Shown in pieces: positions 40,957 to 64,000 of a stretch of DNA of 64,000 nt. Positions within the stretch are counted from its first letter, which is position 1; each line of letters opens with the position of its first letter. A program made the position numbers and the translations under genes. This DNA is from Verrucomicrobiota bacterium (GTDB taxonomy: Bacteria > Verrucomicrobiota > Verrucomicrobiia > Opitutales > Seribacteraceae): NCBI GenBank assembly GCA_027622665.1, contig JAQBYT010000002.1, forward strand, positions 288,001-352,000, written 5' to 3'. Below the pieces are notes generated by a model. That model saw only the letters and a list, made by a program, of their open reading frames with translations. It was not told the origin of the DNA and ran no database searches.

Positions 40957-40990
40957 CAGTTGTTCCGCCGAAACAACGTTTCCGAACCGG

Positions 40991-44560: not shown

Positions 44561-44887
44561 TTGTCCATTCTGGTTTTCGCTTCCATCATTTTTGTTTGGG
44601 GTGTTCGATACAATAACATCAAGGATGAGTTTAAGCATTTTAACCTTCCCACCTGGGTCAGGGATATGGTCGGGATTTTTAAATTCAGCTTCGCGATCAT
44701 GCTCTTCAACGATAATCCGGAAGTGGTTCGAATCGGTGCTTTGGGAATTGCAGTTCTTATGATTGCCGCCTTGTTCACCCACATCCGATTGAAGAGCGCT
44801 CAACCCAAGATGCTTCCTTCCTTTTTTCTATTGTGCACCTGCTTGGCTATTGCCTACATGAGCGCCCAACTGCATCTCGCCGGCTGA
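44561..44887 (+). CDS. DoxX-family membrane protein (TTG start, or ATG 44540 with an in-frame TAA at 44552)
   Basis: Hydrophobic helices, EF..FNLP.W, MIAALFTHIR. Confidence 0.7.
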   Translation: MSILVFASIIFVWGVRYNNIKDEFKHFNLPTWVRDMVGIFKFSFAIMLFNDNPEVVRIGALGIAVLMIAALFTHIRLKSAQPKMLPSFFLLCTCLAIAYMSAQLHLAG

Positions 44888-44894
44888 ACCCTCC

Positions 44895-45254
44895 ATGTCC
44901 TACCTGCAAGTATCACTTCAGGTTTTACTTTTCCTAACCTTTGCCCTCGGTGGAGCTTATCGCTTTTTTCAACCTATCGACAAGCTTGCCAAACGAATGC
45001 TCTGGGTCACCTATTTCAATCCCCGAATCGTTCGTTCAATTGCCTTGGTTGAAGTAATCTGCGGAATCGGCATCATTATTCCCTTGTTTCTACCCGATTC
45101 TTCCTTTGCCTTCATTTTATATTCCGGTTGCCTTCTCATGGCCACAATGATCGGAGCTGTCGTCACCCATGCTTGTATCGGGGACTACAAACAAATATTA
45201 GGAAACCTCTTACTCTTCGGCATGCTCTATCTAGTTACTTTCCCGGTCATTTGA
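44895..45254 (+). CDS. DoxX-family membrane protein
   Basis: EVICGIG..P, MIGAVVTH, four hydrophobic helices. Confidence 0.75.
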   Translation: MSYLQVSLQVLLFLTFALGGAYRFFQPIDKLAKRMLWVTYFNPRIVRSIALVEVICGIGIIIPLFLPDSSFAFILYSGCLLMATMIGAVVTHACIGDYKQILGNLLLFGMLYLVTFPVI

Positions 45255-45261
45255 AAATCCA

Positions 45262-45319
45262 ACCTCGAAGAACTTTGGTATGAGTTGAATCGGCATCCGG
45301 TTCATGCGTTTGCGGATTG
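45262..45319 (+). repeat. Direct repeat A1: copy of the GIY-YIG gene 5' end (46452-46509)
   Basis: 58 bp, 4 mismatches by manual alignment. Confidence 0.92.
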
Positions 45320-45438
45320 TCTGCAATTGTTTGGACGAAGTTTTGGTGAAGCTGTCCTGAATTCTCTTTGCCTTGAAGCTTGTTGGATAATGAAAAGGAT
45401 ACGATTGATACGTCTTGTAAACCGTTAAGTAACACTTT

Positions 45439-46434
45439 ATGGTTTGGTCTATGAAAATATCTCGTTTGAGAGAAAAGAAGGAGCTGCTTGATAGCTATAG
45501 ACCCTTGCCCGCCGTCCTCGTTAAAAATCTGGAGGATTGGTTCCGGGTGGAGCTCACCTACACAAGCAACGCGATCGAGGGTAATACGCTCACCCGCAGG
45601 GAAACGGCCCTAGTTGTTGAAAAAGGTCTTACGGTTGGAGGGAAAACTCTAGTCGAACACTTGGAGGCAACGAACCATGCCCATGCCTTGGATTGGGTTC
45701 GTCAACAAGCATCTCGTTCCGCTCGGAAACTCACGGAGAAAGATGTCTTGAGCATTCACGAAATCATTCTGAAAGGGATTGATTCTGCAAATACCGGATT
45801 TTATAGAAGCGTTCCCGTTCGAATTTCCGGCTCCACCGTGGTTCTTCCCAATCCTCGAAAAGTTCCTGATTTAATGGAAGCATTCGTGACCTGGTTGAAG
45901 CAAGGACCGGATCTACATCCCGTGGAATTGGCTGCCGAAGCTCACTACCGTCTCGACACCATTCACCCCTTTGCGGACGGCAATGGAAGAACCGCCCGAT
46001 TACTGATGAATTTAATTCTGTTAATGACGGGATATCCCACCGCAATCATCCGAAAACTTGACCGTGAGGCGTACCTGGGCGCTCTGGAAAAAGCCCAGCT
46101 TGGTGGATCCCAAGACGATTACCTGCAACTCATCTATAAAGCCGTTAACCGCTCGTTGGACATCTATCTTCGGGCTGCTCGGGGGGAAGATGCCGAAGGC
46201 GAAGTCGACGACTCCCTGCTCAAGATCGGCGAACTGGCCAAACGCACGGGAGAGAACAATTCGACCATCCGTTATTGGACGAAAGAAGGCTTGCTTGAAG
46301 TCGCGGAAGTTACGGAAAGCGGTTATCAATTGTATTCTCCTGAAATGATCAAACGCGTGGAACAGATCTACTTCCTCAAAAAGGAAAGACTCACCTTGCA
46401 GGAAATAAAAGAGAGAATTTCTCAAACGGAATAG
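45439..46434 (+). CDS. Fic-family protein with C-terminal MerR-type HTH
   Basis: HPFADGNGRTAR catalytic motif; TSNAIEGN N-terminal autoinhibitory motif; KIGELAKRTGE..STIRYW...GLL MerR HTH. Confidence 0.92.
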   Translation: MVWSMKISRLREKKELLDSYRPLPAVLVKNLEDWFRVELTYTSNAIEGNTLTRRETALVVEKGLTVGGKTLVEHLEATNHAHALDWVRQQASRSARKLTEKDVLSIHEIILKGIDSANTGFYRSVPVRISGSTVVLPNPRKVPDLMEAFVTWLKQGPDLHPVELAAEAHYRLDTIHPFADGNGRTARLLMNLILLMTGYPTAIIRKLDREAYLGALEKAQLGGSQDDYLQLIYKAVNRSLDIYLRAARGEDAEGEVDDSLLKIGELAKRTGENNSTIRYWTKEGLLEVAEVTESGYQLYSPEMIKRVEQIYFLKKERLTLQEIKERISQTE

Positions 46435-46444
46435 CGTGCTCCCA

Positions 46445-46882
46445 ATGCCTGACCTCGAAGAACTTTGGTATGACTTGAATCGGCAGTCGGTTCATGCCTT
46501 TGCGGATTGGCCGAATCGGGAGATCCCGAAGGGGAAGCCCGGGGTGTATTTGATTTATCAGGGGGTTCGTTTGATTTACGTCGGGAAGGCGAAAAAGAAT
46601 TTACTTGGACGATTGACCCAGCATGCGCGTGGCCACCGCAGTGGTGATCAATTTTGCGTTTACCTTGGAGATCGTTTGGTCATGCCCAAGCTTGGGATCG
46701 ATCAAATGAAAGACCTCTTTTCGGGCGAGCTTTCGCTCGACCATGAAATCAAAAAGTTCGTCCGTTCCCAATTGTCCTACCGCTACCTAATCGTCAAAGA
46801 CGACCCAACCGCCCGCACCCTCGAAGCCCATGGTCTCCAAGTCGCCAAAGGGCAGGGGGCGGAGTTGTTGAATGCCAATTGA
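46445..46882 (+). CDS. Stand-alone GIY-YIG nuclease
   Basis: GVYLIY...IYVGKA..L.GRL.QH, late conserved E (RTLEA). Confidence 0.85.
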   Translation: MPDLEELWYDLNRQSVHAFADWPNREIPKGKPGVYLIYQGVRLIYVGKAKKNLLGRLTQHARGHRSGDQFCVYLGDRLVMPKLGIDQMKDLFSGELSLDHEIKKFVRSQLSYRYLIVKDDPTARTLEAHGLQVAKGQGAELLNAN

Positions 46883-47062
46883 TGTGCCCGACTCGAAATC
46901 GGTGACATTCTTTTAAAACCCCCTTTAATTAACCCTAAATGGTTCTTTGTTTTTGCTCAAATTTCACTAAAAGGGTTCACGAAAGGGTCACGTCTTTCTA
47001 CTAGCAACAAATTATTCTTTTGATAGGCAAATAGTTGATAGTTTGTATCAGGTCGGCGTCCG

Positions 47063-47485
47063 TTGACTGAGGAGTCTTTCTGCAGCAACGGCTGGTTTTT
47101 CGGTGACGAAATAGCCTTGTTGAGAAAATACACCTCACGGCTGTTCGAGGATCTGGACGAAAAAATCGAGGCGGGATTCTCTCGCATCTTCGAGGAGTGG
47201 GAACGGAACGACCTCAGGGTGATGAACTATCGGGAGCGGAAACTGGACGACAAGGAGGCTCACGATCTGGTCATCAAAAGCATGGACGCCGCGGCTATTC
47301 CGCCTTCGGCAATTCCCCGTGTGCTTCAGGAATTTCGATCGCCCTGGCATCAGGAATTCGTTCCAAGGAACGCATGGAGCCTCTACAACGCGTTTACGGA
47401 GGTCATGAAGAGCTTGCCTCACCTCCTGCCCGAAAGGACCAGGGCCCTCACCCGTTGTTTCGACATGGAGTTGGAGATCGCATGA
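47063..47485 (+). pseudogene. DUF932/DUF945-like mobile-element protein, probably 5'-truncated
   Basis: P.HQEFVPRNAWSLYNAFTE motif; TTG start in an AT-rich unrelated segment. Confidence 0.6.
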
Positions 47486-47712
47486 ACCAATGCGCGGGTA
47501 ACGCAGGAGGGGAACAACGGGTTGACCTGAGGAGAAACCCTCCGCTGATCATGAACGCCAAGGAAGTCGCGACCTATCTAGGCGTATCGCCTCGAAAAGT
47601 ACGTGGTGACGCAGCGGCGGGTCTCATGCCATGCGTCAAGCTGGGCGGACGAGTCTTGTTCAGACTGAAAGACGTTAACGCTCGCCTCGACAGATTAACA
47701 AACGACGACTGA
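47482..47712 (+). CDS. Excisionase-like (HTH_17) DNA-binding protein
   Basis: MNAKEVATYLGVSPRKV....G.MPCVKLGGRVLFR; ATGA overlap with the upstream gene. Confidence 0.8.
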   Translation: MNQCAGNAGGEQRVDLRRNPPLIMNAKEVATYLGVSPRKVRGDAAAGLMPCVKLGGRVLFRLKDVNARLDRLTNDD

Positions 47713-47728
47713 GTCGCCACATACCACA

Positions 47729-47758
47729 AAAAGCCTACTCCTTTGCGGGTGGGCTTTT
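47729..47758. terminator. Probable bidirectional intrinsic terminator
   Basis: AAAAGCCTACTC-CTTTGC-GGGTGGGCTTTT stem with A/T tails between convergent units. Confidence 0.65.
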
Positions 47759-48038
47759 CTTAGGTGTCGGATGGAAGGGCCGTACTGGCAGGATAAACGA
47801 AGCCCATCGAGCACTTTGCAGATGGCGAAAGCCCTGACAACGAGGACTTCGTGAGGTCTTGAAATTCGAGTCGGTCGTCGTATCCGCTCGGGTCAAGCCT
47901 TCGGATCTCTGCAAATCAGAAAGAAGAAGATTCGAGTATCAACTGCCACTTTGAAAATCACTGCCTCAAAGGGCTAGGGCATGTGGAAGACCAGCAAAGA
48001 CTATCCAGTCATTTCATTTGGAAATACAGATTTGATGA

Positions 48039-51000
48039 TCACGCCGCTTTGCTCAACAGATCGAAGATGACCCTGGCGAATTTGGCGGCGCGGTCGGGGT
48101 TGGAGAGGAGTTGGTCTTTTTGGTTTTGATGGACGTCGCTGCTGTCGATAATGGCGTCGTCCAAGGCTTTTTCGAAGTCGCCCAGCATGGCTTGCTCGGC
48201 GCTGTTGTTGGCGATCTGATCCATGATGCTCTGGTTCTCGCTGAGCTTGTCGCGGATCGTGTAAGCATAGTTGACGAGATCCTTTTCGGAGAGTTGATCG
48301 GTGATGAAAAGCTCGTTGAGACGGTCGATAATTAGGGAGAGGCGTTCTTCTTTTTTATCCTTCGCCCTAGCGCTGCCTGCTGCCTCCCCGCCTTTGAGGC
48401 CGTAGTCGCCTTGCTCTTCTTCCATTACCAAATCCTGCTGCTTGAGCTTACTGAGACGGTAGTGGCTCATCTCGACGTTGCTAAGGTCAATGGGGTCATC
48501 GTCCTCGAAGCTTTCGCGGAGCATCGGGCGGAGGTTGCGGGCGTAAAGGCTGAGCTTCTCTAAGTCCTTGTCGTCATAGTCCACGATCTGGGACATAAAC
48601 TCGTAGAAGCGCACGAAGGTGCCGAGATCCTTCTTGAAGATGTCGAGCCCGTCCTTAACCTGCTTGGCCTCCTTGAAGCGTTTCTCGGCATTGGCAATCA
48701 GCACGGCATCGCCGGTCTTTTTAGTGCGCTCAAATTCGTCCCGCCCTTGCTTGAAGAGCTTCACTGCTACACTGTAACGCACCTGCCAGCGTTCGACGGC
48801 TGGCTTACAGATATTGGCGAGGGCTGCGGGGCTCTTACTTTTGACGAAGAACGCATCGGCAAATTGCTCCACTTCCTTCCATGTGAAAATACCGACTGCA
48901 CGTAACTTTTCGAAGAGATCGAATACGAGATCGGGATCGGATACGTCTTCCAGCTTTGCGGTTTTGTAATACGGCAGAAACGATTCGAGGATGTCCTCGG
49001 GATCATTGAAGAAGTCCAAGACGAAGGTGCCCGTCTCGGCTTTGCCGGGATAAGTGCGATTGAGGCGAGACAAGGTCTGCACGCACTCCACGCCGCCGAG
49101 CTTCTTATCCACATACATCGCGCAAAGCTTGGGCTGGTCGAAGCCGGTTTGAAACTTATTGGCCGCGATCATCACCTGATAGTCCTCCGAATCGAAGGCC
49201 TTGCGCATATCGCGCTTCTTCAAGTTCGGGTTCATGTTGTGCTCGGTGAATTTCTCACCCAACAGCCCTTCGGACTGCGGGTCTTTGGCGTTGAACGTGA
49301 CCTCGCCTGAAAAGGCCACCATGCCGTAAAGCTTATTGTAGCCCTGCTCCTTGATGTATTTATCAAAGCCGAGCTTATAGCGCACCGCCTCCTTGCGGGA
49401 GCTGGTAACCACCATCGCTTTGGCGTGTCCACCGAGGAGGCCCATCACGTTGTCGCGGAAATGCTCAATGATGACCTGCACCTTTTGAGCGATGTTGTAG
49501 TCATGCAGGCGCACCCATTGGTTGAGCTTCACCTTGGCCTTCTTGCTCTCCACCTCGGAATCCGAGGCCTGCACCTTTAGCGCTAAGTTGTAAGCCACCT
49601 TGTAATTGGTGTAGTTCTTCAGCACATCGAGAATAAAGCCCTCTTCGATCGCCTGACGCATGCTATATACGTGAAAGGCTTCGGGAAGGTTCTTCTTCGA
49701 CGGCGCTTCGTCCGGCTTCGGCAAACGACCAAACAACTCCAGCGTCTTGGGCTTAGGTGTGGCGGTAAAGGCAAAGTAGCTCAGGTTTTTCGATACGCGG
49801 CGCGACGATACCATGGCATCTAGAATATCGTCTGACGAGAGTTCTTCATCTTCGTCACGCGCTTCCACCATGAGAACTTCTTTGAGCTGGCGGGCAGTGG
49901 CTCCGGTTTGCGAGGAGTGAGCTTCGTCGGCGATGATCGCGTAGTTGCGCTCTTTCAGGCTCACGCTGTTCTCGATCGCTTTGAGCACGAAGGGAAAGGT
50001 CTGGATAGTGACGATGATGATCGGAGTGGACTCTTCGAGCGCCTTAGCCAACTTCTCCGACTTCGAGCCATCGCCCTCGTCGCGATTGATTTTTCCGACG
50101 ATGCCATCGACGTGCTCGAACTGTGAAATCGTATCTTGTAGTTGACTATCCAATACTGTGCGATCCGTCACCACGATCACCGAGTGAAACTGCTTATCGC
50201 CCGCATCGTCATAGAGCGATGAGAGCTGATGCGCCGTCCATGCGATAGAGTTGGACTTACCCGAGCCGGCGCTGTGTTGTACCAGATACTTTGAGCCGGG
50301 GCCTTCCTCGCGAGCGGCGTCTATCAATTGATTGACCACGTCCCACTGATGGTAGCGTGGGAAGATCATCGTCTCCTTCTTATATTTGCGACCTTCCCAG
50401 TTCTCCTTCTCCTCGATCTGCAAGTGGACGTAGCGAGCCAGGATGTTAAAAAGATTCTTCGGCAGCAGCACCTCGTTCCATAGATAGTCGGTGGCGTATT
50501 GATTAACATCCTTCGGCACGTCATTGCCCGAGCCGCCGTCCAGTGTGCCTTTGTTAAATGGGAGGAAGTAAGTGTTTTGCCCTTCGAGCTGAGTGGTCAT
50601 ATAGACCTCGTATTGGCTGACGGCGAAGTGCACGAGCGCTCCGCGTTTGAAGGTGAGGAGAGGCTCGGGCTTCTTCGCCACGGGGTCCACCGGGGGTCGG
50701 GTGAGCTTATACTGCTTGATGGCATTCTGCACCGCCTGCTTGAACTCCGATTTCAGTTCCAGCGTCGCCACCGGCAGGCCGTTGACGAACAGCACCAAGT
50801 CGATGCGCCAGTTCTTCGCCTTCACGCCCGTCTCTTTCAAATGCTCCTCCGTCGCCCATGGGCTATACACCAACTCAGGCACAACCCGCAGGCGGTTCAT
50901 TTGATACATTCGCAGCGTGTCGGGATTCAGGTCGTGCTCCGGCTCGAACTGACAGAGCTTGAAACGCGCGCCACGGTCTTTAATCGTATGACGCAACACA

Positions 51001-51287
51001 CCCAAGGTGCCGAAAGTGCGTAGCGTGCCGTCAGCGGCATTCGGATCGACCTTGTTGAGCTGCGTCGCCACCCGCTCTAAAAACTTCGCGTCCGTGTTGC
51101 TCGGGTAGAGCTTGGTGAACTTCTCCCACTCCTTCGGTTGCGTGTCTTGCACGAAGCCGAGCACGTCCTCTTCATACAGCGCCAACTCACGGTTGTAGCC
51201 ATCGGGCGTGCCGAGCAACCAGCCATTCGCGACCAACTGGTCGATCATATCATTCTGAAAGGTGAGTTCGTTGGCTTTGTCGGTCAT
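48039..51287 (-). CDS. hsdR: Type I restriction endonuclease subunit R
   Basis: IDLVLFVNGLPVATLELKS nuclease motif, QHSAGSGKS, DEAH, FTATP, TGFDQP, QTLSRLNR. Confidence 0.95.
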   Translation of the reverse strand: MTDKANELTFQNDMIDQLVANGWLLGTPDGYNRELALYEEDVLGFVQDTQPKEWEKFTKLYPSNTDAKFLERVATQLNKVDPNAADGTLRTFGTLGVLRHTIKDRGARFKLCQFEPEHDLNPDTLRMYQMNRLRVVPELVYSPWATEEHLKETGVKAKNWRIDLVLFVNGLPVATLELKSEFKQAVQNAIKQYKLTRPPVDPVAKKPEPLLTFKRGALVHFAVSQYEVYMTTQLEGQNTYFLPFNKGTLDGGSGNDVPKDVNQYATDYLWNEVLLPKNLFNILARYVHLQIEEKENWEGRKYKKETMIFPRYHQWDVVNQLIDAAREEGPGSKYLVQHSAGSGKSNSIAWTAHQLSSLYDDAGDKQFHSVIVVTDRTVLDSQLQDTISQFEHVDGIVGKINRDEGDGSKSEKLAKALEESTPIIIVTIQTFPFVLKAIENSVSLKERNYAIIADEAHSSQTGATARQLKEVLMVEARDEDEELSSDDILDAMVSSRRVSKNLSYFAFTATPKPKTLELFGRLPKPDEAPSKKNLPEAFHVYSMRQAIEEGFILDVLKNYTNYKVAYNLALKVQASDSEVESKKAKVKLNQWVRLHDYNIAQKVQVIIEHFRDNVMGLLGGHAKAMVVTSSRKEAVRYKLGFDKYIKEQGYNKLYGMVAFSGEVTFNAKDPQSEGLLGEKFTEHNMNPNLKKRDMRKAFDSEDYQVMIAANKFQTGFDQPKLCAMYVDKKLGGVECVQTLSRLNRTYPGKAETGTFVLDFFNDPEDILESFLPYYKTAKLEDVSDPDLVFDLFEKLRAVGIFTWKEVEQFADAFFVKSKSPAALANICKPAVERWQVRYSVAVKLFKQGRDEFERTKKTGDAVLIANAEKRFKEAKQVKDGLDIFKKDLGTFVRFYEFMSQIVDYDDKDLEKLSLYARNLRPMLRESFEDDDPIDLSNVEMSHYRLSKLKQQDLVMEEEQGDYGLKGGEAAGSARAKDKKEERLSLIIDRLNELFITDQLSEKDLVNYAYTIRDKLSENQSIMDQIANNSAEQAMLGDFEKALDDAIIDSSDVHQNQKDQLLSNPDRAAKFARVIFDLLSKAA

Positions 51288-51289
51288 GC

Positions 51290-53221
51290 TTAAATGTGCT
51301 CTTCAGCTTTAAGTGCTGCCGTAATGTAGCGCTGCTTGGGATGCGTTTTTATATTGGGGTGTTCTGCTAGCAGTTTCTGCTCTCCAAGCATGACGCGGAT
51401 GAAATTCTTACGCAAAGTATCTGGATCTCGCTTCAGCAACTCCGCCAGCTCAGCCAGCGATAAATAGCGACCTTGGCACAATTGTAGGATTGTGCTCTCA
51501 ACCAAGATCTTTGTCGCACGCTGCGCACTCGCAACTGGTTCCGCAATTGAGCGCAAAGCTTCGATATGCTCCTGAAGCACCTCACTATGCCCAGAGCTCG
51601 GCTCCTTAGACCCAGAGCTCGGCTCCTTATGCCCAGAGCTCTCCCTTTTCGCTTCCGCTTGATCACCAAAGACATTCAGCCCGAAAACCTCCTTAGCCCC
51701 AGAGTTCTCGATGGGATGCGCTCCGGGTAAAAAGTAAAAGGTTCCGACCCCATTGCCCTCACTTTGCAGATACTGCTTTGCCACTAAACCATGCAAGCTG
51801 TTAGTTAAGTCGCTGGGGTGCTCCTTGGTCAGCTCAGTCAGGCGCGTATGGCTAATGCAGCCTTCGGCATGCGCAGTGACTAAGGCAATGCGTTCAGGTT
51901 GAGACAAGGCGTCAAACGACTCACCAATCCGGTCCTGAAGATACTCGATGGATGCTTCAGGCATCAGGCTGACCATGCGCAGGGCTAAAATCGTCTGGTC
52001 CGTCTCGATACGCTCCTCAATGTCGGGCACACGCCAATGCTGCCCTGCCCAATTTTTATAGATCTTAGGGAAGCCGAAGCCTGATTGTTCGCCTAGGCCG
52101 ATGAGTTGAAACATCTTTTGCAGGTTTCGATTGCGACAGTCACTCGTGCCCCCGCGAATCGCCTCTTTTAAGGGCACACGCAGAGTTCCAGGATTGCGAA
52201 AGCCAAATAAGTCAGGCCGTTTCACAATAAGAATCGAACAATTACTCGTATAGTCGGCATGAATCAACGTGTTCACCAGCGCCTCGCGCAACGCTTCATG
52301 CACGGGTGTATCTTCGATGCGTTGATCTCCCTTTAGGGCAAACGGAACTTTTAGATCGCTCGTCAGTTTCGCATACACGCTACGGTAAAAGTCATAGAGG
52401 TTGCCCGACCATGAGAAGTCAGTCGTTAAGCGGTCAATCCAGCGAGCCTCCTTAACCGCTCGCGGGCGCTCCTGATAGTCCACCACGTAACGCGGGATCG
52501 CATCCAGTATCGAACGCAATTTTCCGAACATCAGCAGCCCCGCAATGGTCAGTCCCGACTTCCCGGTTTGGCGGTCAGTCGCATAGCCGCCGAGCTGTTC
52601 GAGATATTCCACCGCATCCAAGTTATTTAAGACATGGGCAGGCTGACGGTTTGCGAAGTTCTGGCGGTAAATACGCAGCGTCTCCATATCGACATCCGAG
52701 ATGCTAAAGCCCTCTAAGATCGTGCTATCCTGAGTGTCACGCACACGCTCGCCCAACATTTTCTCCACGACCTCACGCGGGCAGCGATAATCACCCTCAT
52801 TATTTCTTCGGTAAGTGCCAATCAGCGGATTCTTGCCGAGATGAACCGGGCGCGCCTTGCGGTCGGCTCGCGGCACTGTGACCAATACCATAGTAAACTC
52901 ATCAATCTTCAGGCGCTTAATCGACTTATCCGACAGCAAGTTCACACTCACAATTTGTGGATTATTCGCCTGATCGAATAGCGTCTGAATCACCTTCTCA
53001 TGTTCAGGAACGCCGACAAATTCAGGCCCATCGGTGGTCTCTTTGATGCCCATTGCGATAATCCCTCCCTCTGTGTTCGCCATTGCAGAGTAACTCTCCC
53101 AAAACGATTGTGGCAGCTTGCCTTTGCCATCGCGGCCATGCGCCGTCTTCAATTCTAAATCAACCTGCTCGTTCAAGTTCTTTAGGTCAAAGAAATCGTC
53201 TTCTAAGTTTAGGTCTACCAT
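51290..53221 (-). CDS. Schlafen/AlbA_2 domain + RecG-C-like HATPase + wHTH protein
   Basis: LELK, SAMANTEGG, ALREALVN.LIHADY, RNPG, RNRNL, EQSGFGF. Confidence 0.85.
   Translation of the reverse strand: MVDLNLEDDFFDLKNLNEQVDLELKTAHGRDGKGKLPQSFWESYSAMANTEGGIIAMGIKETTDGPEFVGVPEHEKVIQTLFDQANNPQIVSVNLLSDKSIKRLKIDEFTMVLVTVPRADRKARPVHLGKNPLIGTYRRNNEGDYRCPREVVEKMLGERVRDTQDSTILEGFSISDVDMETLRIYRQNFANRQPAHVLNNLDAVEYLEQLGGYATDRQTGKSGLTIAGLLMFGKLRSILDAIPRYVVDYQERPRAVKEARWIDRLTTDFSWSGNLYDFYRSVYAKLTSDLKVPFALKGDQRIEDTPVHEALREALVNTLIHADYTSNCSILIVKRPDLFGFRNPGTLRVPLKEAIRGGTSDCRNRNLQKMFQLIGLGEQSGFGFPKIYKNWAGQHWRVPDIEERIETDQTILALRMVSLMPEASIEYLQDRIGESFDALSQPERIALVTAHAEGCISHTRLTELTKEHPSDLTNSLHGLVAKQYLQSEGNGVGTFYFLPGAHPIENSGAKEVFGLNVFGDQAEAKRESSGHKEPSSGSKEPSSGHSEVLQEHIEALRSIAEPVASAQRATKILVESTILQLCQGRYLSLAELAELLKRDPDTLRKNFIRVMLGEQKLLAEHPNIKTHPKQRYITAALKAEEHI
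51587..51641. repeat. In-frame 21-bp tandem repeat (~2.6 copies)
   Basis: (atg/aga)cccagagctcggctcctt units encoding SSG(H/S)KEP. Confidence 0.9.
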
Positions 53222-53249
53222 GATTCTAATGTGATTTGAGGATTGAAAG

Positions 53250-54173
53250 CTATGAAGCCTCGTAGGCACGTTCCAATAACGGCAAGGCTCGTTTCAAGTC
53301 ATCCTGAGTGCGTAGGACGATCTCCAAGTCACCCGTGCCCCAATGGCCGATGTTGCGCACGTCGCGGGTGAAGCCTTCTTCTAGTGTCACGGTGTCGGGG
53401 TTGACCTTCACGTATAGAAACAGCTTTCCGGCGTTCGGTCGGACTTCCACTGTGACGAAATTCTTCAGACGCTTAAAAGCCGCATAGAGTTTTAACTTCT
53501 TGAACTGAACGTCGTCCCCAAAGCCGAGACAAGTGGCCTTCACCGCCTCGAAGAGATCAAGTAGTTGCTCATCAGCGAGTGCCAGTTGCTCCTCGATGGT
53601 TTTGTCCCCCGACTTCGCTTTACCTTTGATTACCGAGCCCGATGTTTTCTCCTCCCAGTCGGAACTGGCTTGAACCGCATTAACAAGTTCCAGTAGGAGA
53701 AACTCATCGTCGAAGCGCAGATAACGGAGCAGCTCGATGTTACGGTTAATCTGCTTCACGGCGTGCCCGTCGTATTTCGTGAAATCACCTGCCAAACAGA
53801 GCAGACGCGGACTGGACCATTCGATGGAGTCCGCGACTTTCTGTCCAAGGCTTTTCAAAACCAGCAACTCAAACTCCCCACGGTGGTCGAGTAGCCAGTC
53901 TAAGTAGAACAGGCCCTGATTGATCACATTCTCATTACTCGCCCGCTTATACTCAATAATACAGGGGCAGCCATTTTCATCAATTCCCAGCGTGTCGATC
54001 CGGCCACCGTGCGTTTTCCCAGTGGAATACTCACTCGCCAGAAAACGGATACCAAGAAATGTTTCCAAGTGCTGCTCGATCAGCAATTGAAGTGATTTTT
54101 CTAAGGCGACCGACTTGCCCTCTAGCAGGCTCACATCGTTCCCGTCTGAGCGAAATAATTTAATGTCACTCAT
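53250..54173 (-). CDS. NucS/DUF91-like PD-(D/E)xK endonuclease with C-terminal DUF5655
   Basis: GRIDTLGIDE, IIEYK, NQGLFY; C-terminal RDVRNIGHWGTGDLE. Confidence 0.85.
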   Translation of the reverse strand: MSDIKLFRSDGNDVSLLEGKSVALEKSLQLLIEQHLETFLGIRFLASEYSTGKTHGGRIDTLGIDENGCPCIIEYKRASNENVINQGLFYLDWLLDHRGEFELLVLKSLGQKVADSIEWSSPRLLCLAGDFTKYDGHAVKQINRNIELLRYLRFDDEFLLLELVNAVQASSDWEEKTSGSVIKGKAKSGDKTIEEQLALADEQLLDLFEAVKATCLGFGDDVQFKKLKLYAAFKRLKNFVTVEVRPNAGKLFLYVKVNPDTVTLEEGFTRDVRNIGHWGTGDLEIVLRTQDDLKRALPLLERAYEAS

Positions 54174-54183
54174 AAATTGCCCT

Positions 54184-55278
54184 TTATTTCTTCCATGCAA
54201 ATTTAGTGCGCAGTCGAGCCGCCGGCTCGGCGTATGCGATCTGCTTTTCACGCAGTAAACGACCGCTGACGATACCGGGGTGAATGCCGACGCTCTCTGC
54301 GAAGTCACGTACTGCAGGAGAAGTGAAACGCGGTGTCTTTGTCACGAAGCTTTCAAACTCCGCAGATGGGATCAGCAATTCACCTGCGAAGCGATTTGCT
54401 TCCTCCTCGCGTGCGGCATCCGCATTATCCGCCTTCTCACCTTCGAGGAAGATACTCTTCTTGCGCTGCTGTAATACGTGCTTCGCCTCATGAAAGAAGG
54501 TGAACCAAAAGTTGTCGTTCGTTTTAAATAGCAATGACTGCTGGATCATTGGGCGCTTTTGGAACCAACGCATGACGCCTGACACCCCTAAGCCCGGTAA
54601 TTCAGGCACGAGCTGATAAATGACGCCCGCACTTGCGCACAGCGCCTGCATCTTGGGATAGAACTCCGTCACGGAATCGGTGGTAAAGGTGCGCATTTCG
54701 ACCAGCGCCTCTTGAAAGCGCTTGGCATCGAACTCGGCGGTCTCTGTCTGATTGGCTCTCAACTCACCCTGACGCAACCAACTGGCAATACCTGCCAACT
54801 TCACATCCACATGGGGCGACTTGCGATACGACAGCTCTAAGTGCATCTCGGCGTAGCAACTTTGCCACTGCTGCGGCGTCGCCACACCGAAGTAGCGCAG
54901 CAAGTGCATGGCTTTTTCTTCAGCTTTACTGGCTGCTTCGATAAAACCATGCTTCACCATCGACGGATACGGGAATGTGCGTGCCCAGTCGGCATATTCA
55001 GCCAACTGCTTGGCCTCTTCTTGACGAGCCAAGTGCTCGCGGTAATTCGCCTCCATATTCAACCAGAAGCGCGCAGGCACCCGTAGCACCTTCTCCAAGG
55101 CAAGTGCGGTCTTATGTGTTATCGGCTGAGTGCCGTTGATAATCAGATTGATCGTCTTCTTATCGAGGCCAATACGCTCCGCCAGCTCCACTTGCGACAT
55201 GCCCAAGCCTTCAAGGCTGTCCAGCAGCGTCTCACCTGGAGCGGTGGCGAAGTCTTCGATCTGTGTATTAGTTGCCAT
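54184..55278 (-). CDS. higA: HigA-type Xre antitoxin fused to ImmA/IrrE (DUF955) metallopeptidase
   Basis: PGETL...MSQVELAER HTH, FWLNME; FHEAKH (HExxH) and EEEANRFA. Confidence 0.85.
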   Translation of the reverse strand: MATNTQIEDFATAPGETLLDSLEGLGMSQVELAERIGLDKKTINLIINGTQPITHKTALALEKVLRVPARFWLNMEANYREHLARQEEAKQLAEYADWARTFPYPSMVKHGFIEAASKAEEKAMHLLRYFGVATPQQWQSCYAEMHLELSYRKSPHVDVKLAGIASWLRQGELRANQTETAEFDAKRFQEALVEMRTFTTDSVTEFYPKMQALCASAGVIYQLVPELPGLGVSGVMRWFQKRPMIQQSLLFKTNDNFWFTFFHEAKHVLQQRKKSIFLEGEKADNADAAREEEANRFAGELLIPSAEFESFVTKTPRFTSPAVRDFAESVGIHPGIVSGRLLREKQIAYAEPAARLRTKFAWKK

Positions 55279-55621
55279 GGTAATCGGTGATTTCGGTAAT
55301 TTCTACTATTGTGATCGCATTCCAGTCCCAGCCGCCATCGGCCTTGCGCGGTTCGGGGTCGTCCATCGGGATAAAAATCAAGCGATGATTGCCGCTCAGG
55401 TTCGCTGCGAACTGTCCTTTAAGGTTGCCAGTGAGTTCATGAATGCCCGCTTGGGGGAGATAACGAAGGTCTTCGAGGCAAGTGGCCGCTAAGAGTTCGG
55501 AGATGCGCTTTTCAAAATTCTTTGCCCGAACGGTACCCAGCTCCTTCTGACGCGTCGCAGCTTTGCTCGCGATCTGCTGAAGCTTATTCGTTCGATATGT
55601 GATTTTCATTAAATTATTCAA
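55268..55621 (-). CDS. higB: HigB/RelE-like toxin (plasmid-maintenance killer type)
   Basis: HELTGNLKGQFA..L...RLIF, EITDYH; overlaps higA and precedes it. Confidence 0.8.
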   Translation of the reverse strand: MNNLMKITYRTNKLQQIASKAATRQKELGTVRAKNFEKRISELLAATCLEDLRYLPQAGIHELTGNLKGQFAANLSGNHRLIFIPMDDPEPRKADGGWDWNAITIVEITEITDYHGN

Positions 55622-55693
55622 TATACCTAAAATGTAAACAACTTTATTTCATCAAGCATCCGCAAGGCAATTTCACCCTTCAAGTTTCACACT

Positions 55694-57036
55694 TCACTCT
55701 TCTGTGCCTCCGGCACATGCAGGCTCCCAGTCACGCACGTCGATCTTGCCCGTCACGGCGGCGGAAATTAGGGCGGTGCGGCGTTCTTGCATTAGTTCGA
55801 TGGCCGATTCAGCCTTGGAAATTAATAATAAAAAGTGGTCAACGATTGTGAAAATATGATCAACGATTTGCCTTTGCTCTTCATGTGGAGGAACAACCAA
55901 TTTCGTTTTCACAAGGTCAGAAACCTTAACATTATCAATAGTGCTCGATTTATTGGTAGCACTAATCGCCTCCTTGAATACTTCCGAAGACAGTAAAAAC
56001 ATGAAGAATTTCGGATCAACATCTAGTTGGCACCTAAATCCAACTACATTCTGAGCTATAAAAAAATCAGGTTCTGGTGGAACCAAGCACGTCTTCCCAA
56101 AGGTTGCCCCTACTGTTACGAATAAAACGTCATTTTCTTTTACATCAGACCGAACAAATTGCTCATAAGATCCCTGAGTGATAAACTTGCTGTAACTCTT
56201 AGAAGTATAAAAGCCATCACCAGCAACCTGACTAACCTCACACATCGGAATTCCACTATCCGTTACGGGGGGGGTTCTGCCTCTATTATCAACAGTGTGA
56301 GCTATCAAATAATTCAAGGATTTACGGCTCCAATGTTCCGGCACTAGACCGAGCCACTCGACGCCGGAGTCCTTCATTCGGGCATCGGGGTTGAGGCCCT
56401 TGGTCACGGCATGGCTAATCACGGCCTGCCGTTTTTCTTTGAGCAGCGCAATCAACGCCTGCTGCTTCTCAATCAAGGCATCGATCTTCCCCGTCTCATG
56501 GTCGAGGAAGCGCGCGATCTGCTTTTGTTCGGGGAGGGTTGGTAGTGCTAATGGTAAACTAGAAAATTCATTATACCTAAATTCGGTAGAGCGTTCACGA
56601 ATGCCTTTTGCAAGCGAAGTGATGTAGTCAGTTACGGCCAACTGGCGAACCAAGTAGCCATAGTATCGCATGTATATTTCAGACTCATCATGTGCAATGC
56701 AAACAGAGCAAACAGGGGAGCACTTTCCATCAGAATCACTGATGCCAATAGCTCCCGCAAAGCCATCCATAGCGTGAACTAGAAGATCACCCTGACGAAC
56801 TCCTTGGTATCCGATTTCTTTTACCGCATTTGTAAACCCCTCAACTCTGCGTTTAAAACGTAAAGTCACTTCACCATCTCTAAAGGCAGTTACGATTCCA
56901 TCTGAAACTAAAGGAGGCCGTTGAACTCGCTTGAACAAATACTTTGCTTTGCGCAAACACCACGCTTTAGGCATGTCACCTAACCACGCCACTCCCGAAT
57001 CCTTATACTCAGGATACGCTTTATATCGCCCAGCCA

Positions 57037-57037
<1 letters not shown>
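55694..57037 (-). CDS. hsdS: Type I R-M specificity subunit
   Basis: Repeated KDSGV.WLG..P..W, PTLPEQ/PPHEEQ, ISHAVTKG/ISAAVTGK; two AT-richer TRDs. Confidence 0.95.
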
Positions 57038-59346
<2,309 letters not shown>

Positions 59347-59531
59347 GGAGTTGTAGGAGGGAGATCGTTATGGACTGCTTTAGGATTATGGAGGGAAGAC
59401 TAATTAATGAGGTTTTTCAAAAACTTGGATAGTTTGTTTAGTTCAACCCGCAAAGAAGAAAAGTAAAAGACAGGTGCCAAGAGCCAAGACGTCACTCTTC
59501 ACGTCGTCGCTGATGTTTCTTTCTGTTGCCC

Positions 59532-59566
59532 CAAACAGTATGTACGAAATCCGTACATACTGTTTG
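59532..59566. promoter_or_regulatory. Perfect 15-bp inverted repeat (candidate operator or recombination site) upstream of hsdM
   Basis: CAAACAGTATGTACG-AAATC-CGTACATACTGTTTG. Confidence 0.55.
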
Positions 59567-59708
59567 ATATGTTTGTGATATAGGTTGTAACCGCTGAATA
59601 GATGGCGATAGCACCCACTATCCCACAACCGCCAAAACCGCCTGCTTCAACTCGTCACTTAGATCACCCCATCTTTCGACGATCTGCGACACCATGCGAC
59701 GATGAAAA

Positions 59709-59977
59709 CGCCCTCTGCGCGCGTAGTAGCAGAGTGCGCTAGACCCCGAGACCTACATGGTTCGCCTGCTCGCCAAGGGCGCTAACCCTCTAACCACAAG
59801 GGCTAGAGGCCTAGCAAAGGAGGCGAGCGCACTCGCGCAGTGCGTCTATTTCGTAAACTTGCTGTGGTGTCCAGCGATCAAAGGGATGATCGTGGCACTG
59901 AGCGCAGTCCTGCTCCGGATTAAGTCGAAAAATCGACTTCCGGTGGCAGGCTTTTCGGGTCTCAAGTGATACCCGAA
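59709..59977. other. Cluster of stem-loops (candidate structured ncRNA or single-strand DNA origin)
   Basis: At least six hairpins, e.g. GCTCGCC..GGCGAGC, CGCACT/AGTGCG, CGATCA/TGATCG, AAGTCGA-AAAA-TCGACTT, TTCGGGT/ACCCGAA. Confidence 0.45.
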
Positions 59978-60086
59978 TGGTTAGTCTCTCAAGCTTTACT
60001 TCTGGACTTCCACCTTGATCGAATCCCAGTCGGCGAAGTTGCTGTCGATCCCGACTATGCGGACGTTCTGGGTGCCGGATGTGGCG
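59973..60086 (-). repeat. Direct repeat C1: 3' half of the small gene at 61276-61437
   Basis: ~114 bp, about 10 differences versus 61254-61366; last 36 bp identical. Confidence 0.93.
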
Positions 60087-60131
60087 AATTTACGTTGAAA
60101 TTAATAAATCGTCGTGCGATGGTATATTGAA

Positions 60132-60674
60132 ATGAAAAGTTTGTCCAAACAGGAGGTTCTTGCATCCTTGGCGAGACTGGGGGAATTGGCGGAGGAACGC
60201 GAAATCGCCTTGGATCTTTGCGTGTATGGTGGATGTGCGATGATGCTTGCCTTTGATCGACGAGCGATCACTCGAGACGTCGATGCCGTGTTTCACCCGA
60301 CCGAAAAGGTTATCCCCCTTATCAAGCAAGTGGCGTCCGAGCAGGGGTTGCCTGAGGACTGGTTGAATGACGACGTCCGCCAATTTCTCGCGACCAAGGA
60401 ATCACTTCGCGAACTGCCGATCGATTTGCCGGGAGTGCGACTGACGGCGCCAACGGCGGGGTACCTTTTGGCGATGAAGGCCTTGGCTTGCCGAAGAGCC
60501 TTGCCCGGGTACAAGGGCGACGAGGAGGACCTTCGCTTTTTGATTCGGAAATTGGAAATATCCTCGATCAAGGATATCCAGAAACATATCGACAAATACT
60601 ATCCGGATGATGCACCGAACGAATCGGGCAGGGCTTTGTTGAACCAGATAATCGAGGAGGAGAGCAAGGGATGA
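60132..60674 (+). CDS. Nucleotidyltransferase (DUF6036/AbiEii-like), putative toxin
   Basis: VYGG.AM...R..TRDVDAV (GG..DxD), WLNDD, LLAMKALA.R, D.EDL. Confidence 0.8.
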   Translation: MKSLSKQEVLASLARLGELAEEREIALDLCVYGGCAMMLAFDRRAITRDVDAVFHPTEKVIPLIKQVASEQGLPEDWLNDDVRQFLATKESLRELPIDLPGVRLTAPTAGYLLAMKALACRRALPGYKGDEEDLRFLIRKLEISSIKDIQKHIDKYYPDDAPNESGRALLNQIIEEESKG

Positions 60675-61198
60675 GCTCGAGAGTGGAGAGACCGCAAACT
60701 ATGCTGCAAGTGGCCGAGCAATCCGAAAGCCTTGAGGAATTCGGCTTTTTGCTTCGGGATTGGATACACTTCCTGACACGCGGAGACGTGAGCAATCGGC
60801 CGGCCTTTGTCAGGGCTATTGCCGAGGAACCGACCATTCTGGCGAAGAAGTTCGAACAGGGGGAGGTGGCGGATGCTTATTTGGCCGCTTATGCGGAGTG
60901 GATCGCCGACCGTGTGCGGGTGGAACGCCCTGCATGGGTCTTGGGTAAGAACCGTGTGCTGCAGGAGCCGTGGTTTGCAGATGAGGCCCGAGCCTCCTTG
61001 CTTGTATTGGCTCCTGCTTCGTTTCGCCAACGCGGAGTGTATACGGTGCCCGAGGAAGTGGCGCCCTTGCGCCGGGGGCGTCCCCGAGTGAGCGAAGACC
61101 GGAAGCGAGCGAAGGCGCGAGCGCGGGATCGTCGTTACCGAGAAAACATTCGGACGAAGCTGAGGAAGTTGAAAGAACTCGAAAGCAGGCTTGCCTAA
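60671..61198 (+). CDS. Partner of the nucleotidyltransferase (putative antitoxin) with C-terminal AT-hook-like/basic tail
   Basis: ATGA overlap; DAYLAAYAE..P.W...EPWF...P.SFR.RG motif; RRGRPR and a Lys/Arg-rich helix. Confidence 0.7.
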   Translation: MSSRVERPQTMLQVAEQSESLEEFGFLLRDWIHFLTRGDVSNRPAFVRAIAEEPTILAKKFEQGEVADAYLAAYAEWIADRVRVERPAWVLGKNRVLQEPWFADEARASLLVLAPASFRQRGVYTVPEEVAPLRRGRPRVSEDRKRAKARARDRRYRENIRTKLRKLKELESRLA

Positions 61199-61275
61199 GA
61201 TATTCCGTTCTCGACGCTCTGAGAACTTACTGCCTCTTGGCGTTTGGGGATAACCGAATGGTTAGTCTCCCGTCT

Positions 61276-61437
61276 TTACTTTTGGACTTGCACCTTGATG
61301 GGATCCCAGTCGGAGAAGTTGCTGTCGATGCCGACTATGCGGACGTTCTGGGTGCCGGATGTGGCGCCGATGGCGAGGAGGAGGGTGGTGGCGAGAAGGA
61401 ATCCGATGAGGAGGCTCTTGAAGTCTATGGTTTTCAT
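61276..61437 (-). CDS. Small 53-aa membrane or secreted protein (not in ORF track)
   Basis: MKTIDFKSLLIGFLLATTLLLAIGATSGTQNVRIVGIDSNFSDWDPIKVQVQK*; the duplicate copy keeps the same frame and stop. Confidence 0.7.
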   Translation of the reverse strand: MKTIDFKSLLIGFLLATTLLLAIGATSGTQNVRIVGIDSNFSDWDPIKVQVQK

Positions 61438-61488
61438 GCCTGCACTATCGCCGCCTAACCAGGAGCGGTCAAGTGGTTCGATTTCCGA

Positions 61489-62838
61489 CTAGAGCAATGC
61501 TTTGATCGGCTTTCCGGCAAAGAGAGGAAGGGGGCGACCGAGCTGGTCGTGGATCATGGTGCTTTCGGGCAATCCCATTGCGGAGTAAGCTGTGGCGAGA
61601 ACGTCGCCGGGAGTGCAGCCGTCGTTCTTGGGGTAGGCGGCGTGTCCATCGGATTCTCCGTGGATTCGGCCGCCTTTGACCCCGCCTCCGGCCATGAGGA
61701 CGCTGTAGCATTGAGGCCAATGGTCCCTGTGGTCGTTTGTCGGTGAACGGCCCATCTCGCCCATCCAGATGACGAGGGTGGTATCGAGTAAGCCGCGTTC
61801 GCGGAGGTCGATCAATAGGGAGGAGAGGGCGGAGTCGGTCTCCGGTAAATTCTTTTTTAGGGTGCCGTAGTTGTTGCTGTGTGTATCCCAACGGTCGTTG
61901 TTGATCCCGATGTTGTCGTTGATCATGACCGTTCGTACGCCGGATTCGACGAGGCGGCGGGCAAGAAGGTAACTCTGTCCGTATCGATTGCGTCCGTATC
62001 GGTCGCGTGATCGGTCGGGTTCGAGGTTCAGGTCGAAGGCTTGCTTGGCCTTGTCGGAACTAAGTAGGTGGTAGGCCTGCTCGTGAAAGGCGTTCAACGT
62101 TTTGGACTGGATCGACTCTCCCAGTTTGGCCAAGCGTTCCTCCAGGGAGGTTCTGAGCGACATCCGACCGTGTAAACGATTCATGTTGATGGAATCGTTT
62201 AGGGTAAGGTTTTTGATTTTGAATTCTTTTTGGGAAGGATCGCCTTCCACTAAAAAGGGGTCGTGAGATCCTCCGATGAAGCCCGCATGCTGCCCGGGTT
62301 GGATATTGCCAACGTCGTAGCACAGCTGTGGGGCAAGTACGTATGAGGGCAAGGTCTCCGGGGCGGGTCTGAACTGGCTCAATACCGAACCCAAGGCCGG
62401 ATGGTGCGAAGGGGTGGGGGTGATGTTGAGCGTGGATTTCGGTGGCTTGTGTCCGGTTAGGGCCCAGTAGGTTGCGGAGGGGTGCAGACCATCCGTATGC
62501 GATACGGTTCGGATTAGGGAAAAGTCTTTCGCCTGCTTGGCCAATTTCGGAAGCAACTCACAAATCTCCATGCCGGGAACTGCCGTCCGGATGGGGCGGA
62601 AAACCCCTCGGATATCAGCCGGCGCATCGGGCTTTAGGTCGAAGGTGTCCAACTGGCTGGGGCCTCCGCTGCAGAAAATAAGGATGCAGGATTTTTCCCG
62701 TTTGGGCGGGGCCTTGTCCGCAGCTTCAGCTTGCAGGATTTGCGGGAGCGTTAAACCGAGAGATCCGAAAGCCCCGACTTGTATGAAACGTCGGCGGCTC
62801 AATCGATCGGGTTGCAATGGATCTGATATGCTGAACAT
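61489..62838 (-). CDS. DUF1501 domain protein (Tat-like signal)
   Basis: SRRRF, GGPSQLDTFDLKP, LLARRLVESGV, WDTH, GEMGRSP, RDHW. Confidence 0.92.
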   Translation of the reverse strand: MFSISDPLQPDRLSRRRFIQVGAFGSLGLTLPQILQAEAADKAPPKREKSCILIFCSGGPSQLDTFDLKPDAPADIRGVFRPIRTAVPGMEICELLPKLAKQAKDFSLIRTVSHTDGLHPSATYWALTGHKPPKSTLNITPTPSHHPALGSVLSQFRPAPETLPSYVLAPQLCYDVGNIQPGQHAGFIGGSHDPFLVEGDPSQKEFKIKNLTLNDSINMNRLHGRMSLRTSLEERLAKLGESIQSKTLNAFHEQAYHLLSSDKAKQAFDLNLEPDRSRDRYGRNRYGQSYLLARRLVESGVRTVMINDNIGINNDRWDTHSNNYGTLKKNLPETDSALSSLLIDLRERGLLDTTLVIWMGEMGRSPTNDHRDHWPQCYSVLMAGGGVKGGRIHGESDGHAAYPKNDGCTPGDVLATAYSAMGLPESTMIHDQLGRPLPLFAGKPIKALL

Positions 62839-63003
62839 CGCTTGTCATCTAGTTGCGAGAGGTGACTATAGTCAAACTTCAAGCAGTACCTGAAGAACTT
62901 TTTATCTAGAAGGGTTTGGCTTTGGGAAGGTCCATAGTGCGAGGTGTTCCCGATCCTTTACGAGGATGCCGCTTTTGAGTAGTTCGGGCGGGGGCTAGGT
63001 TGA

Positions 63004-63214
63004 CGTCTGCCTTGGTGATGGATTGGTTATGCCCAAGCTTGGTGCCGACTGAATTAAAGATGTCTTTTCGGGCGAGCTTTTACTCGACCATGAAATGAAA
63101 AGTCCGTCCGTTCCGAATGGTCCTACCGTTACTTCCTCGTCAAAGACGACTCGACTGCCCGCGCTCTCGAAATCTACGGTCTTCAAATCGTCAAGGGGAA
63201 GGGGGTTGTTGCAT
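63004..63214 (+). pseudogene. Degenerate copy of the GIY-YIG gene 3' half (46657-46873)
   Basis: Co-linear by eye (roughly 80% identity), same orientation, with an in-frame TGA and a 1-bp deletion. Confidence 0.85.
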
Positions 63215-63297: not shown

Positions 63298-64000
63298 ATG
63301 GTGGGTGAAAGTATAAAGTTTATAGATCTTTTTGCGGGAATTGGTGGGTTTCATCTAGCATTGCATAACTTAGGAGCCGAGTGCGTTTTCGCTTCCGAGT
63401 GGGACAAGCATGCTCGCGTGACCTACGAACATAATTTTAAGCAAAAATCTCCTGAACTATTCAAAAAGGGAAATTTTGTTGGAGACATCACGGAAATCGA
63501 AAAAAAGAACATTCCGGACTTTGATGTTCTTACTGCGGGCTTCCCATGCCAGCCTTTTAGCCAAGCAGGGTTCAAGAAGGGTTTTGTAGATACAAGGGGT
63601 ACGCTTTTCTTCGACATTGCAGAGATTATTAAAATAAAAAAGCCCAAGGCCTTTTTTTTGGAGAATGTCAGGCATATATATAAGCATGATGAAGGAAGGA
63701 CTTTTTCCACGATCAAAAAGACCTTGACCCGGGATCTCGGGTATTCCTTCCAGGAATTCATAGTTAAAGCTTCCGACCATGGGCTTCCCCAGCACAGGCC
63801 AAGGCTTTTCATGATTGGCTTTCGAGATAAAACTCTCTCCATCGATACACCAGAGAAGCAAGATCTGCTTTTTAAGATGTCGGACGTCATGAAGGGTGAA
63901 GTGGATCGAGACGTAGGATACACTTTACGAGTCGGTGGACGAGCTTCGGGTATCAATGATCGCAGGAATTGGGATTGTTACAGAGTGGATGGCAAGGTTA
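63298..64000 (+). CDS. C5 DNA cytosine methyltransferase, runs off the window end (not in ORF track)
   Basis: MVGESIKFIDLFAGIGG (motif I), GDI, AGFPCQPFS (IV), RGTLF, LENV (VI), PQHRPR (VIII). Confidence 0.93.
   Translation, partial: MVGESIKFIDLFAGIGGFHLALHNLGAECVFASEWDKHARVTYEHNFKQKSPELFKKGNFVGDITEIEKKNIPDFDVLTAGFPCQPFSQAGFKKGFVDTRGTLFFDIAEIIKIKKPKAFFLENVRHIYKHDEGRTFSTIKKTLTRDLGYSFQEFIVKASDHGLPQHRPRLFMIGFRDKTLSIDTPEKQDLLFKMSDVMKGEVDRDVGYTLRVGGRASGINDRRNWDCYRVDGKV

Follow-up and report, generated by a model that had tools for sequence, protein, structure and literature searches.

Insertion with long target duplication of restriction-modification (R-M) units is said to have been described by Nobusato et al. 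in 2000. As set out in a later article, such insertions leave direct repeats of more than 30 bp that vary in length and are unique in the genome; the repeats often cover the start or the stop codon of the target gene, which thereby survives, an empty site is present in a relative, and the species concerned are mostly competent (Furuta et al., 2010, PMC2853133). The same article admits inserts of less than 20 kb that lack mobility genes and carry R and M genes, an orphan M gene or a type IV system being also accepted. Here we analyze an island with a comparable footprint in a stretch of 64,000 nt from a marine Verrucomicrobiota bacterium (Opitutales, Seribacteraceae; GenBank assembly GCA_027622665.1, contig JAQBYT010000002.1, positions 288,001 to 352,000), where defense or toxin-antitoxin (TA) blocks lie between a working gene and a stranded copy of 40-200 bases of its end. 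These arrangements are likely the scars of host recombination splicing in foreign DNA. The footprint has already been described in other bacteria; its family-wide occurrence and nested stacking are what is new. The question addressed is how integrase-free hotspots gain, and not just swap, defense genes. The record in this family is unusually full: shared anchors carry dozens of joints, and there are empty sites, nested events and near-identical young cases. With such a record the question can be tested by population genomics, which would tell the donor's copy and the length of the tract, and natural substrates are at hand for a transformation assay. We will refer to the whole stretch as "the window"; it is part of contig C65 of a genome (G000) of 4.5 Mb and 93.5% completeness. 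Relative genomes are labeled G0xx, loci from relatives or metagenome contigs L0xx or L1xx, and contigs of G000 Cxx.

Other described routes leave related traces. In a Campbell-type insertion-duplication of a non-replicating circle the gene is restored by the incoming end, and homology-facilitated illegitimate recombination (HFIR) in the laboratory usually deletes, rather than duplicates. HFIR has been proposed for the effector-immunity arrays of the V. cholerae type VI secretion system and for orphan Rhs 3' ends (PMC5361080). The present locus would share with that proposal a homologous anchor combined with a non-homologous joint, and serial additions that leave displaced ends as alleles of different strains; on the other hand, those arrays use one dedicated locus with deletion of the resident effector, whereas here arbitrary genes serve as anchors and the anchor is partly duplicated. 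Integrase-free hotspots of horizontal gene transfer, with turnover by recombination (double crossover) at flanking core genes, are presented in PMC5635113. The islands described here are likewise integrase-free, with raised diversity in a flanking core gene (the rapA end) and with hsdS exchanged within populations; however, the double crossover of that model leaves no duplicated ends, and the scars here record an additive step. Islands of tyrosine integrases at transfer RNA or transfer-messenger RNA (tmRNA) genes, or at the 3' ends of protein genes, also consist of an intact gene plus a displaced 3' end, and an element of the tmRNA type appears to have donated the R-M block of the window; unlike such islands, with their fixed core and adjacent integrase, the four repeat pairs considered below (A to D) have neither.

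As in insertion with long target duplication, the repeats here are long, variable and unique, overlap start or stop codons, have empty sites in relatives and enclose no mobility gene. In contrast, the cargo is mostly other than R-M (Fic-MerR, a putative nucleotidyltransferase pair, HNH, TA pairs), the events are nested and stacked on shared anchors throughout the family, and in several relatives the two copies resemble different alleles and not duplicated recipient DNA. The inserts of A and C carry neither R nor M genes, and that of D carries an orphan C5 methyltransferase; the pattern thus works like insertion with long target duplication and is not a strict R-M member of it. A literature search, outside which lay subscription journals and supplements, found no paper on this pattern in Opitutales.

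Repeat Pairs in the Window

Self-BLAST of the 64-kb window returned exactly three strong direct repeats, A, B and C, all far above the matches in ten order-3 Markov windows used as control (top self-match 32-50 bits), which bears out the three pairs that an earlier note on this DNA had proposed from the letters alone. Pair A (45262-45319/46452-46509; 54/58 identical, 93%, 87.8 bits) comprises nt 8-65 of a GIY-YIG gene, the displaced 5' fragment and the intact gene (46445..46882, 145 aa) lying on the plus strand at either side of a Fic-MerR gene (45439..46434, plus strand). Pair B (46657-46859/63004-63205; 80%, 183 bits) comes from the same intact gene, its displaced copy, also on the plus strand, being the 3' half (nt 213-415), interrupted by a frameshift and a stop. 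Pair C (59968-60086/61249-61366; 91%, 162 bits) consists of nt 72-162 (the last 91 nt) of a gene for a protein of 53 aa together with about 25 nt past its stop; the displaced half and the intact gene (61276..61437) are on the minus strand and enclose a two-gene cassette (60132..61198, plus strand). The repeats A, B, C and D measure 58, 203, 119 and 76 bp, and each has two copies in the genome, D with three short ones; the inserts of A, C and D span 1.1-2.2 kb, and within the B span lie remnants of excisionase and DUF932 genes but no integrase. The note had placed the pairs correctly, the ends 46873 and 63214 that it gave for B adding only a gapped tail; its identities of about 93%, 91% and 80% are right as values, the correct order for A, B and C being 93%, 80% and 91%.

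Pair D (62926-63001/65205-65280, 83%), whose second copy lies just outside the window, is formed by the terminal 79 nt of a gene with PQQ repeats (intact at 65202-66452 in window numbering), the displaced copy being on the minus strand. The displaced D copy stops 2 nt before the displaced B copy starts, hence B and D interleave and do not nest. At this non-homologous joint (63001/63004) the parent genes match at 9/14 nt, a value reached by 0.28% of registers for a window length picked after looking. The 53-aa gene lies directly beside the PQQ gene in G002 and beside the gene after PQQ in G006, and G083 has an intact GIY-YIG gene followed by a C5 methyltransferase. In the simplest account, B and D would be the two sides of one splice between two island alleles, a left parent GIY...53aa-DUF1501-PQQ and a right parent GIY-methyltransferase-X-PQQ. 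Because relatives share the 53aa-PQQ linkage, the 2.2-kb methyltransferase block is more likely to be the newcomer than the 16-kb block. The identities of B (80%) and D (83%) suit one event better than separate steps. As D interleaves with B, B is probably no unit of 16 kb, and the idea of a mobile unit of about 16 kb bringing the R-M operon finds no support, the operon sitting in a separate element tail. A third copy of the PQQ gene end (33 nt, about 64360-64400, or L001 4360-4400), between the methyltransferase and the next gene, is an older nested event.

The repeats are also real as assembled. The comparison with sequencing runs covered 8 of 23 runs, all in contig form, in which rare variants drop out. 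Both A copies lie on one contig in 3/4 runs compared at A, and the B/D joint on one contig in 6/8 runs, every run coming from a different study; furthermore, pair A recurs in G004, G006 and the metagenome contig L098, and pair C in G006. The possibility of assembly chimeras of two strains draws on the metagenome-type nature of the assembly and on the identical core of C, which breaks unitigs, no single listed read contig covering both C copies; against these single contigs and recurrences it becomes negligible, and chimeras are ruled out for A, B/D and C. Among the joints listed for the eight runs none skips A, B, C or D. A back-joint 61214/60060 in run X16 was considered as an excision circle and rejected, for it coincides with a remnant junction of G002/G006. 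Parts of the island differ in depth in runs X15 and X16, a difference given no weight because the depth of a contig does not measure a proportion of cells.

Empty Sites, Cargo Turnover and Stacking Across the Family

Homologues of the GIY-YIG gene were found in 14/76 genomes and at 50 metagenome loci. L099 represents the empty site of the 5' end, with an intact GIY-YIG gene directly 3' of queE, and further empty sites are seen for D (G002, with the 53-aa gene next to the PQQ gene) and for arfB (G083, arfB-rapA); no same-locus empty site was found among relatives for C or B. The GIY-YIG 5' copies enclose four different cargoes: Fic-MerR in the window, an HNH protein in L134, a 323-aa nuclease-like protein in L110/L120/L126, and a GYF_2 protein with NERD in L115. 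Two checks that the earlier note had proposed, for empty sites and for different cargo between the same repeats, thus came out in its favor. The sister genera show further copies of the rapA 3' end behind varying cargo, the fragments starting 38, 62-66, 100, 130-139, 153, 170-171 and 183 nt from the stop (the rapA query matched 0/9 genomes of the window's genus and 14/75 family relatives). The cargo of C is bracketed in L155/L156 by the brnA 3' end (96-100%), nested within an arfB 3' duplication; at 15 close loci it has brackets in 4 and none in 11 (3 of the 11 with almost no flank), and 14 of 41 distant loci show some direct bracket, many of these being paralogues or repetitive extragenic palindromic (REP)-like repeats. 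Repeats, empty sites, change of cargo, variable joints and nesting are all directly visible. Gene ends do act as reusable landing pads (GIY-YIG, rapA, arfB, brnA), as the note had put forward; its restriction to small accessory genes falls, since core genes serve as well, the anchors including rapA, arfB and the PQQ-repeat and dipeptidase-like genes.

A genome-wide scan for low-copy pairs gave 47 direct and 2 inverted ones; internal repeats or paralogues account for most of the direct pairs, and several more are gene-end pairs. The youngest case seen, G000:C61:164610-165359, is a 114-bp, 99% duplication of the 3' end of a dipeptidase-like gene around a two-gene cassette, which from its motifs we take to resemble hicA-hicB. 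Other gene-end pairs on C65 flank non-defense cargo (108869-116856, 139 bp, 78%; 368249-369625, 60 bp, 82%). In G004 (L006:1926-2085) both GIY-YIG copies flanking Fic-MerR are 5' fragments, the second breaking near nt 80, possibly by a further insertion, before the contig ends. Several events are stacked in G043 (L082 10691-15852): the GIY-YIG 3' half lies upstream of the 5' part, and they are accompanied by a GmrSD gene, a fragment of rapA and a spacer that is repeated around a Fic gene.

Mechanism and Rival Explanations

In our judgment these structures probably arose when host recombination took in a diverged gene end and the event was completed by a non-homologous joint, with some room left for other routes; a circular or a linear donor would serve alike. 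The incoming DNA would carry a short diverged copy of the end of the neighboring gene and pair with the resident copy, its other end being closed by a non-homologous joint; the product would be one intact gene, one stranded fragment of 40-200 nt and the new genes in between, whether by single crossover of a circle or by anchor plus illegitimate joint of a linear molecule. We infer that a dedicated recombinase would be unnecessary, that any gene end facing the slot could be used, and that a gained gene could anchor the next event. Homologies of 40-70 nt at 85-95% identity are short for RecA.

Several lines of evidence point to an incoming gene end. The fragments nearly always retain the end of the gene (to no more than about 25 nt from its start or stop). 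In pair A the first 7 nt of the gene, which agree with homologues, are present in the intact copy and absent from the fragment, and in L134 the repeat begins exactly at the ATG, which argues that the right-hand DNA already bore a GIY-YIG start. The rapA fragment of G082 is 95% identical to the L136 allele vs. 87% to its own partner, and the L134 GIY-YIG fragment matches the queE-linked empty-site allele of L099 at 58/62 positions vs. 56/62 for its own partner; a foreign allele is equal or closer for 5/6 GIY-YIG 5' fragments, with small margins. Six close rapA alleles share 93-94% identity as far as 120 nt before the stop, and 76-87% in three of the last four 30-nt bins, and in a distant rapA pair the last 120 nt are not more variable; foreign patches are limited to the rapA repeat span, as in a Campbell-type insertion. 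Excised circles were not seen in the contigs. A relative-rate count of rapA against the family consensus gave 48 vs. 104 sites, one locus being counted twice, and does not decide the matter. Among 5-mers at 17 joints none is common to more than 6, the null mode being 5-6. Microhomology varies from joint to joint: 9/14 at B/D, 3-7 nt at L156/L161, and little at brnA/arfB and G041/G043. The genome contains comEC and dprA.

A number of observations weigh against this origin. Genes comEC and dprA are also present in 10-11/14 control genomes, so competence is not shown by them. The signal of a foreign allele is weak or absent in the window's own pairs: fragment C is nearer to its own gene (93%) than to the G006/G002 genes (89%), the D fragment stands at 83% to its own gene vs. 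82%, and B ties at 163/202 each; the nearest-allele margins elsewhere are small and were taken as best of many. Differences of A-D pooled by codon position (22/10/30; 28 synonymous, 34 not) do not have a clear third-position excess and fit plain duplication plus decay. L156, L161 and G006 contain eroded longer duplications joined by deletions, as remodeling predicts, and the brnA/arfB joint has little microhomology. Also, 8 same-genus genomes, in which contigs end, yielded no complete copy of either parent allele expected for the B/D joint.

Part of these observations would follow from tandem duplication in one lineage, with later deletion and allelic exchange of one copy leaving short end fragments around changed content, an alternative route given in PMC3457768. 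Remnants of such a history can be read in L161 (three pieces of a 4.6-kb sbcD-sbcC-like duplication), in L156 (477+198 bp) and in the joined remnant of G006/G002, and the 3-7-nt microhomologies at several joints as well as the nearness of fragments C and D to their own genes agree with it. Tandem duplication, however, supplies no new genes, the cargo being missing from empty-site relatives; random erosion does not favor the nearly constant retention of gene ends, and the G082 fragment comes from another allele lineage, all of which leaves this route rather unlikely. Strict insertion with long target duplication, where a break (perhaps by a restriction enzyme) would be repaired, recipient DNA alone duplicated and the incoming DNA devoid of homology, is to be considered unlikely as well: the 7 nt of the intact A copy that the fragment lacks and the L134 repeat starting at the ATG stand against it, and most cargoes are not R-M systems, while the lengths of the repeats, their placement on start or stop codons and the abundance of R-M in the islands agree with what PMC2853133 describes. 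As to whether both copies derive from the recipient, G082 and L134 speak against it, and C, D and the C61 case (114 bp, 99% identical) are compatible with it, as are the codon-position counts.

Besides host recombination, which stands as the best explanation, the earlier note had named an integrase acting in trans. Such a site-specific enzyme, encoded elsewhere, using gene ends as attachment (att) sites and stacking cassettes, is very doubtful because the joints are variable in position (38-183 nt before the stop of rapA), share no motif or common core and involve at least seven unrelated anchors; with eight joint positions it is largely refuted for rapA. No tyrosine or serine recombinase was found on contig C65, in line with the note's statement for the window; its proposed search of the genome yielded tyrosine recombinases on five other contigs and no serine recombinase (at 93.5% completeness). 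Those tyrosine recombinases and the integrative-element tail within the island would speak for an integrase, whereas the resident element family targets tmRNA and its integrase is here truncated and frameshifted. The GIY-YIG joints fall at nt 62, 65, 66 and 53 (5') and at nt 208 and 213 (3'), P for the 5' cluster being about 0.01-0.07 depending on how sharply the ends are read, and this clustering is a hint only. It has a place in a bolder proposal, improbable in our view, in which marine Opitutales would build defense islands by a dedicated, integrase-free gene-end capture with preferred joints: DNA with 40-190 nt of a neighboring gene end would be spliced in, each gained gene would become the next entry point, and the hotspot GIY-YIG nuclease would cut the recombination intermediate (joints at nt 62-66 in 3/4 and at nt 208-213 in 2/2 events).

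The R-M Operon and the tmRNA-Targeting Element Tail

The type I R-M operon (48039..59346, minus strand) comprises hsdR, AlbA/ATPase, DUF5655, HigA-like, HigB-like, hsdS and hsdM genes, the label type I R-M of the earlier note holding as does Fic-MerR. Its neighbors are, on one side, a truncated DUF932 gene and a gene of the excisionase family (47079-47712) and, on the other, a conserved element-end motif (59615..59703, strand undefined, cut at 59703). The DUF932 remnant (47079..47485, plus strand) is 5'-truncated, keeping aa 108-243 of a 243-aa relative, and marks the left edge of the clipped tail; the HTH_17/excisionase-family gene follows at 47494..47712 (plus strand). The same element backbone carries different cargo in relatives and on contig C35, and in 4/10 relative loci the end motif continues for about 100 bp until it reaches a tmRNA 3'-end copy. 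G001 has an hsdM 94% identical in the corresponding element position, G052 has DUF932, DUF5131 and a helicase-type gene beside its tmRNA together with an integrase-like open reading frame (judged by eye against the Pfam-confirmed integrase of G006), and a related integrase at the G000 tmRNA (G000:C64:2802-4048) is the truncated and frameshifted one. In the window the element tail is cut at both ends, with no repeat. An earlier tmRNA-targeting integrative element likely brought in the R-M operon, which would then have moved here with neither integrase nor att site. Relatives hold full members of the element family, which have integrase, DUF5131 and primase or helicase genes and resemble small elements of the satellite type. 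Among the runs compared, hsdS with parts of hsdM (window 55750-57000) varies, hsdR and the genes between being near-identical; this pattern is an exchange of the specificity subunit inside the population.

Other Features of the Island

A queE-like radical SAM gene (40913..41692, plus strand) flanks the island slot on the left; directly behind it L099 has the GIY-YIG gene, and L134 a 5' fragment of that gene. Two DoxX-family genes (44561..45254, plus strand) precede fragment A, with the same gene order in G004 and G006; a start codon retained by fragment A and overlapping the DoxX stop was considered and dropped, G004 and G006 differing there. On the right, a remnant of a cytochrome-motif gene (59750..59910, minus strand), which presumably belongs to a DUF1549-like family, has a paralogue on contig C59; a DUF1501 gene (61489..62838, minus strand) lies between the intact 53-aa gene and fragment D, and a C5 DNA methyltransferase (63298..64000, plus strand, running on to 64158) lies 3' of the B fragment as its counterpart lies 3' of the intact GIY-YIG in G083. 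An Rfam scan of 38000-64000 gave nothing at E up to 0.5. Two weak direct repeats (769-809/8692-8732 and 1065-1115/8994-9044; 44 and 39 bits) are within the shuffled range. The 53-aa protein has a hydrophobic N-terminal half and is conserved in the bacterial family, matching no protein family; its reading frame is kept at 65-96% in 9/9 relative loci examined. The cassette at 60132..61198 encodes a DUF6036-like putative nucleotidyltransferase of 180 aa and a protein of 175 aa with no assigned family. Neither has matches in Pfam, PADLOC or NCBIfam, and the name "nucleotidyltransferase pair" used in the earlier note is backed solely by the DUF6036 match of a 69% identical homologue of the first protein. 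The cassette recurs at 56 loci, mostly of Opitutales, and is a candidate for an uncharacterized TA or defense system.

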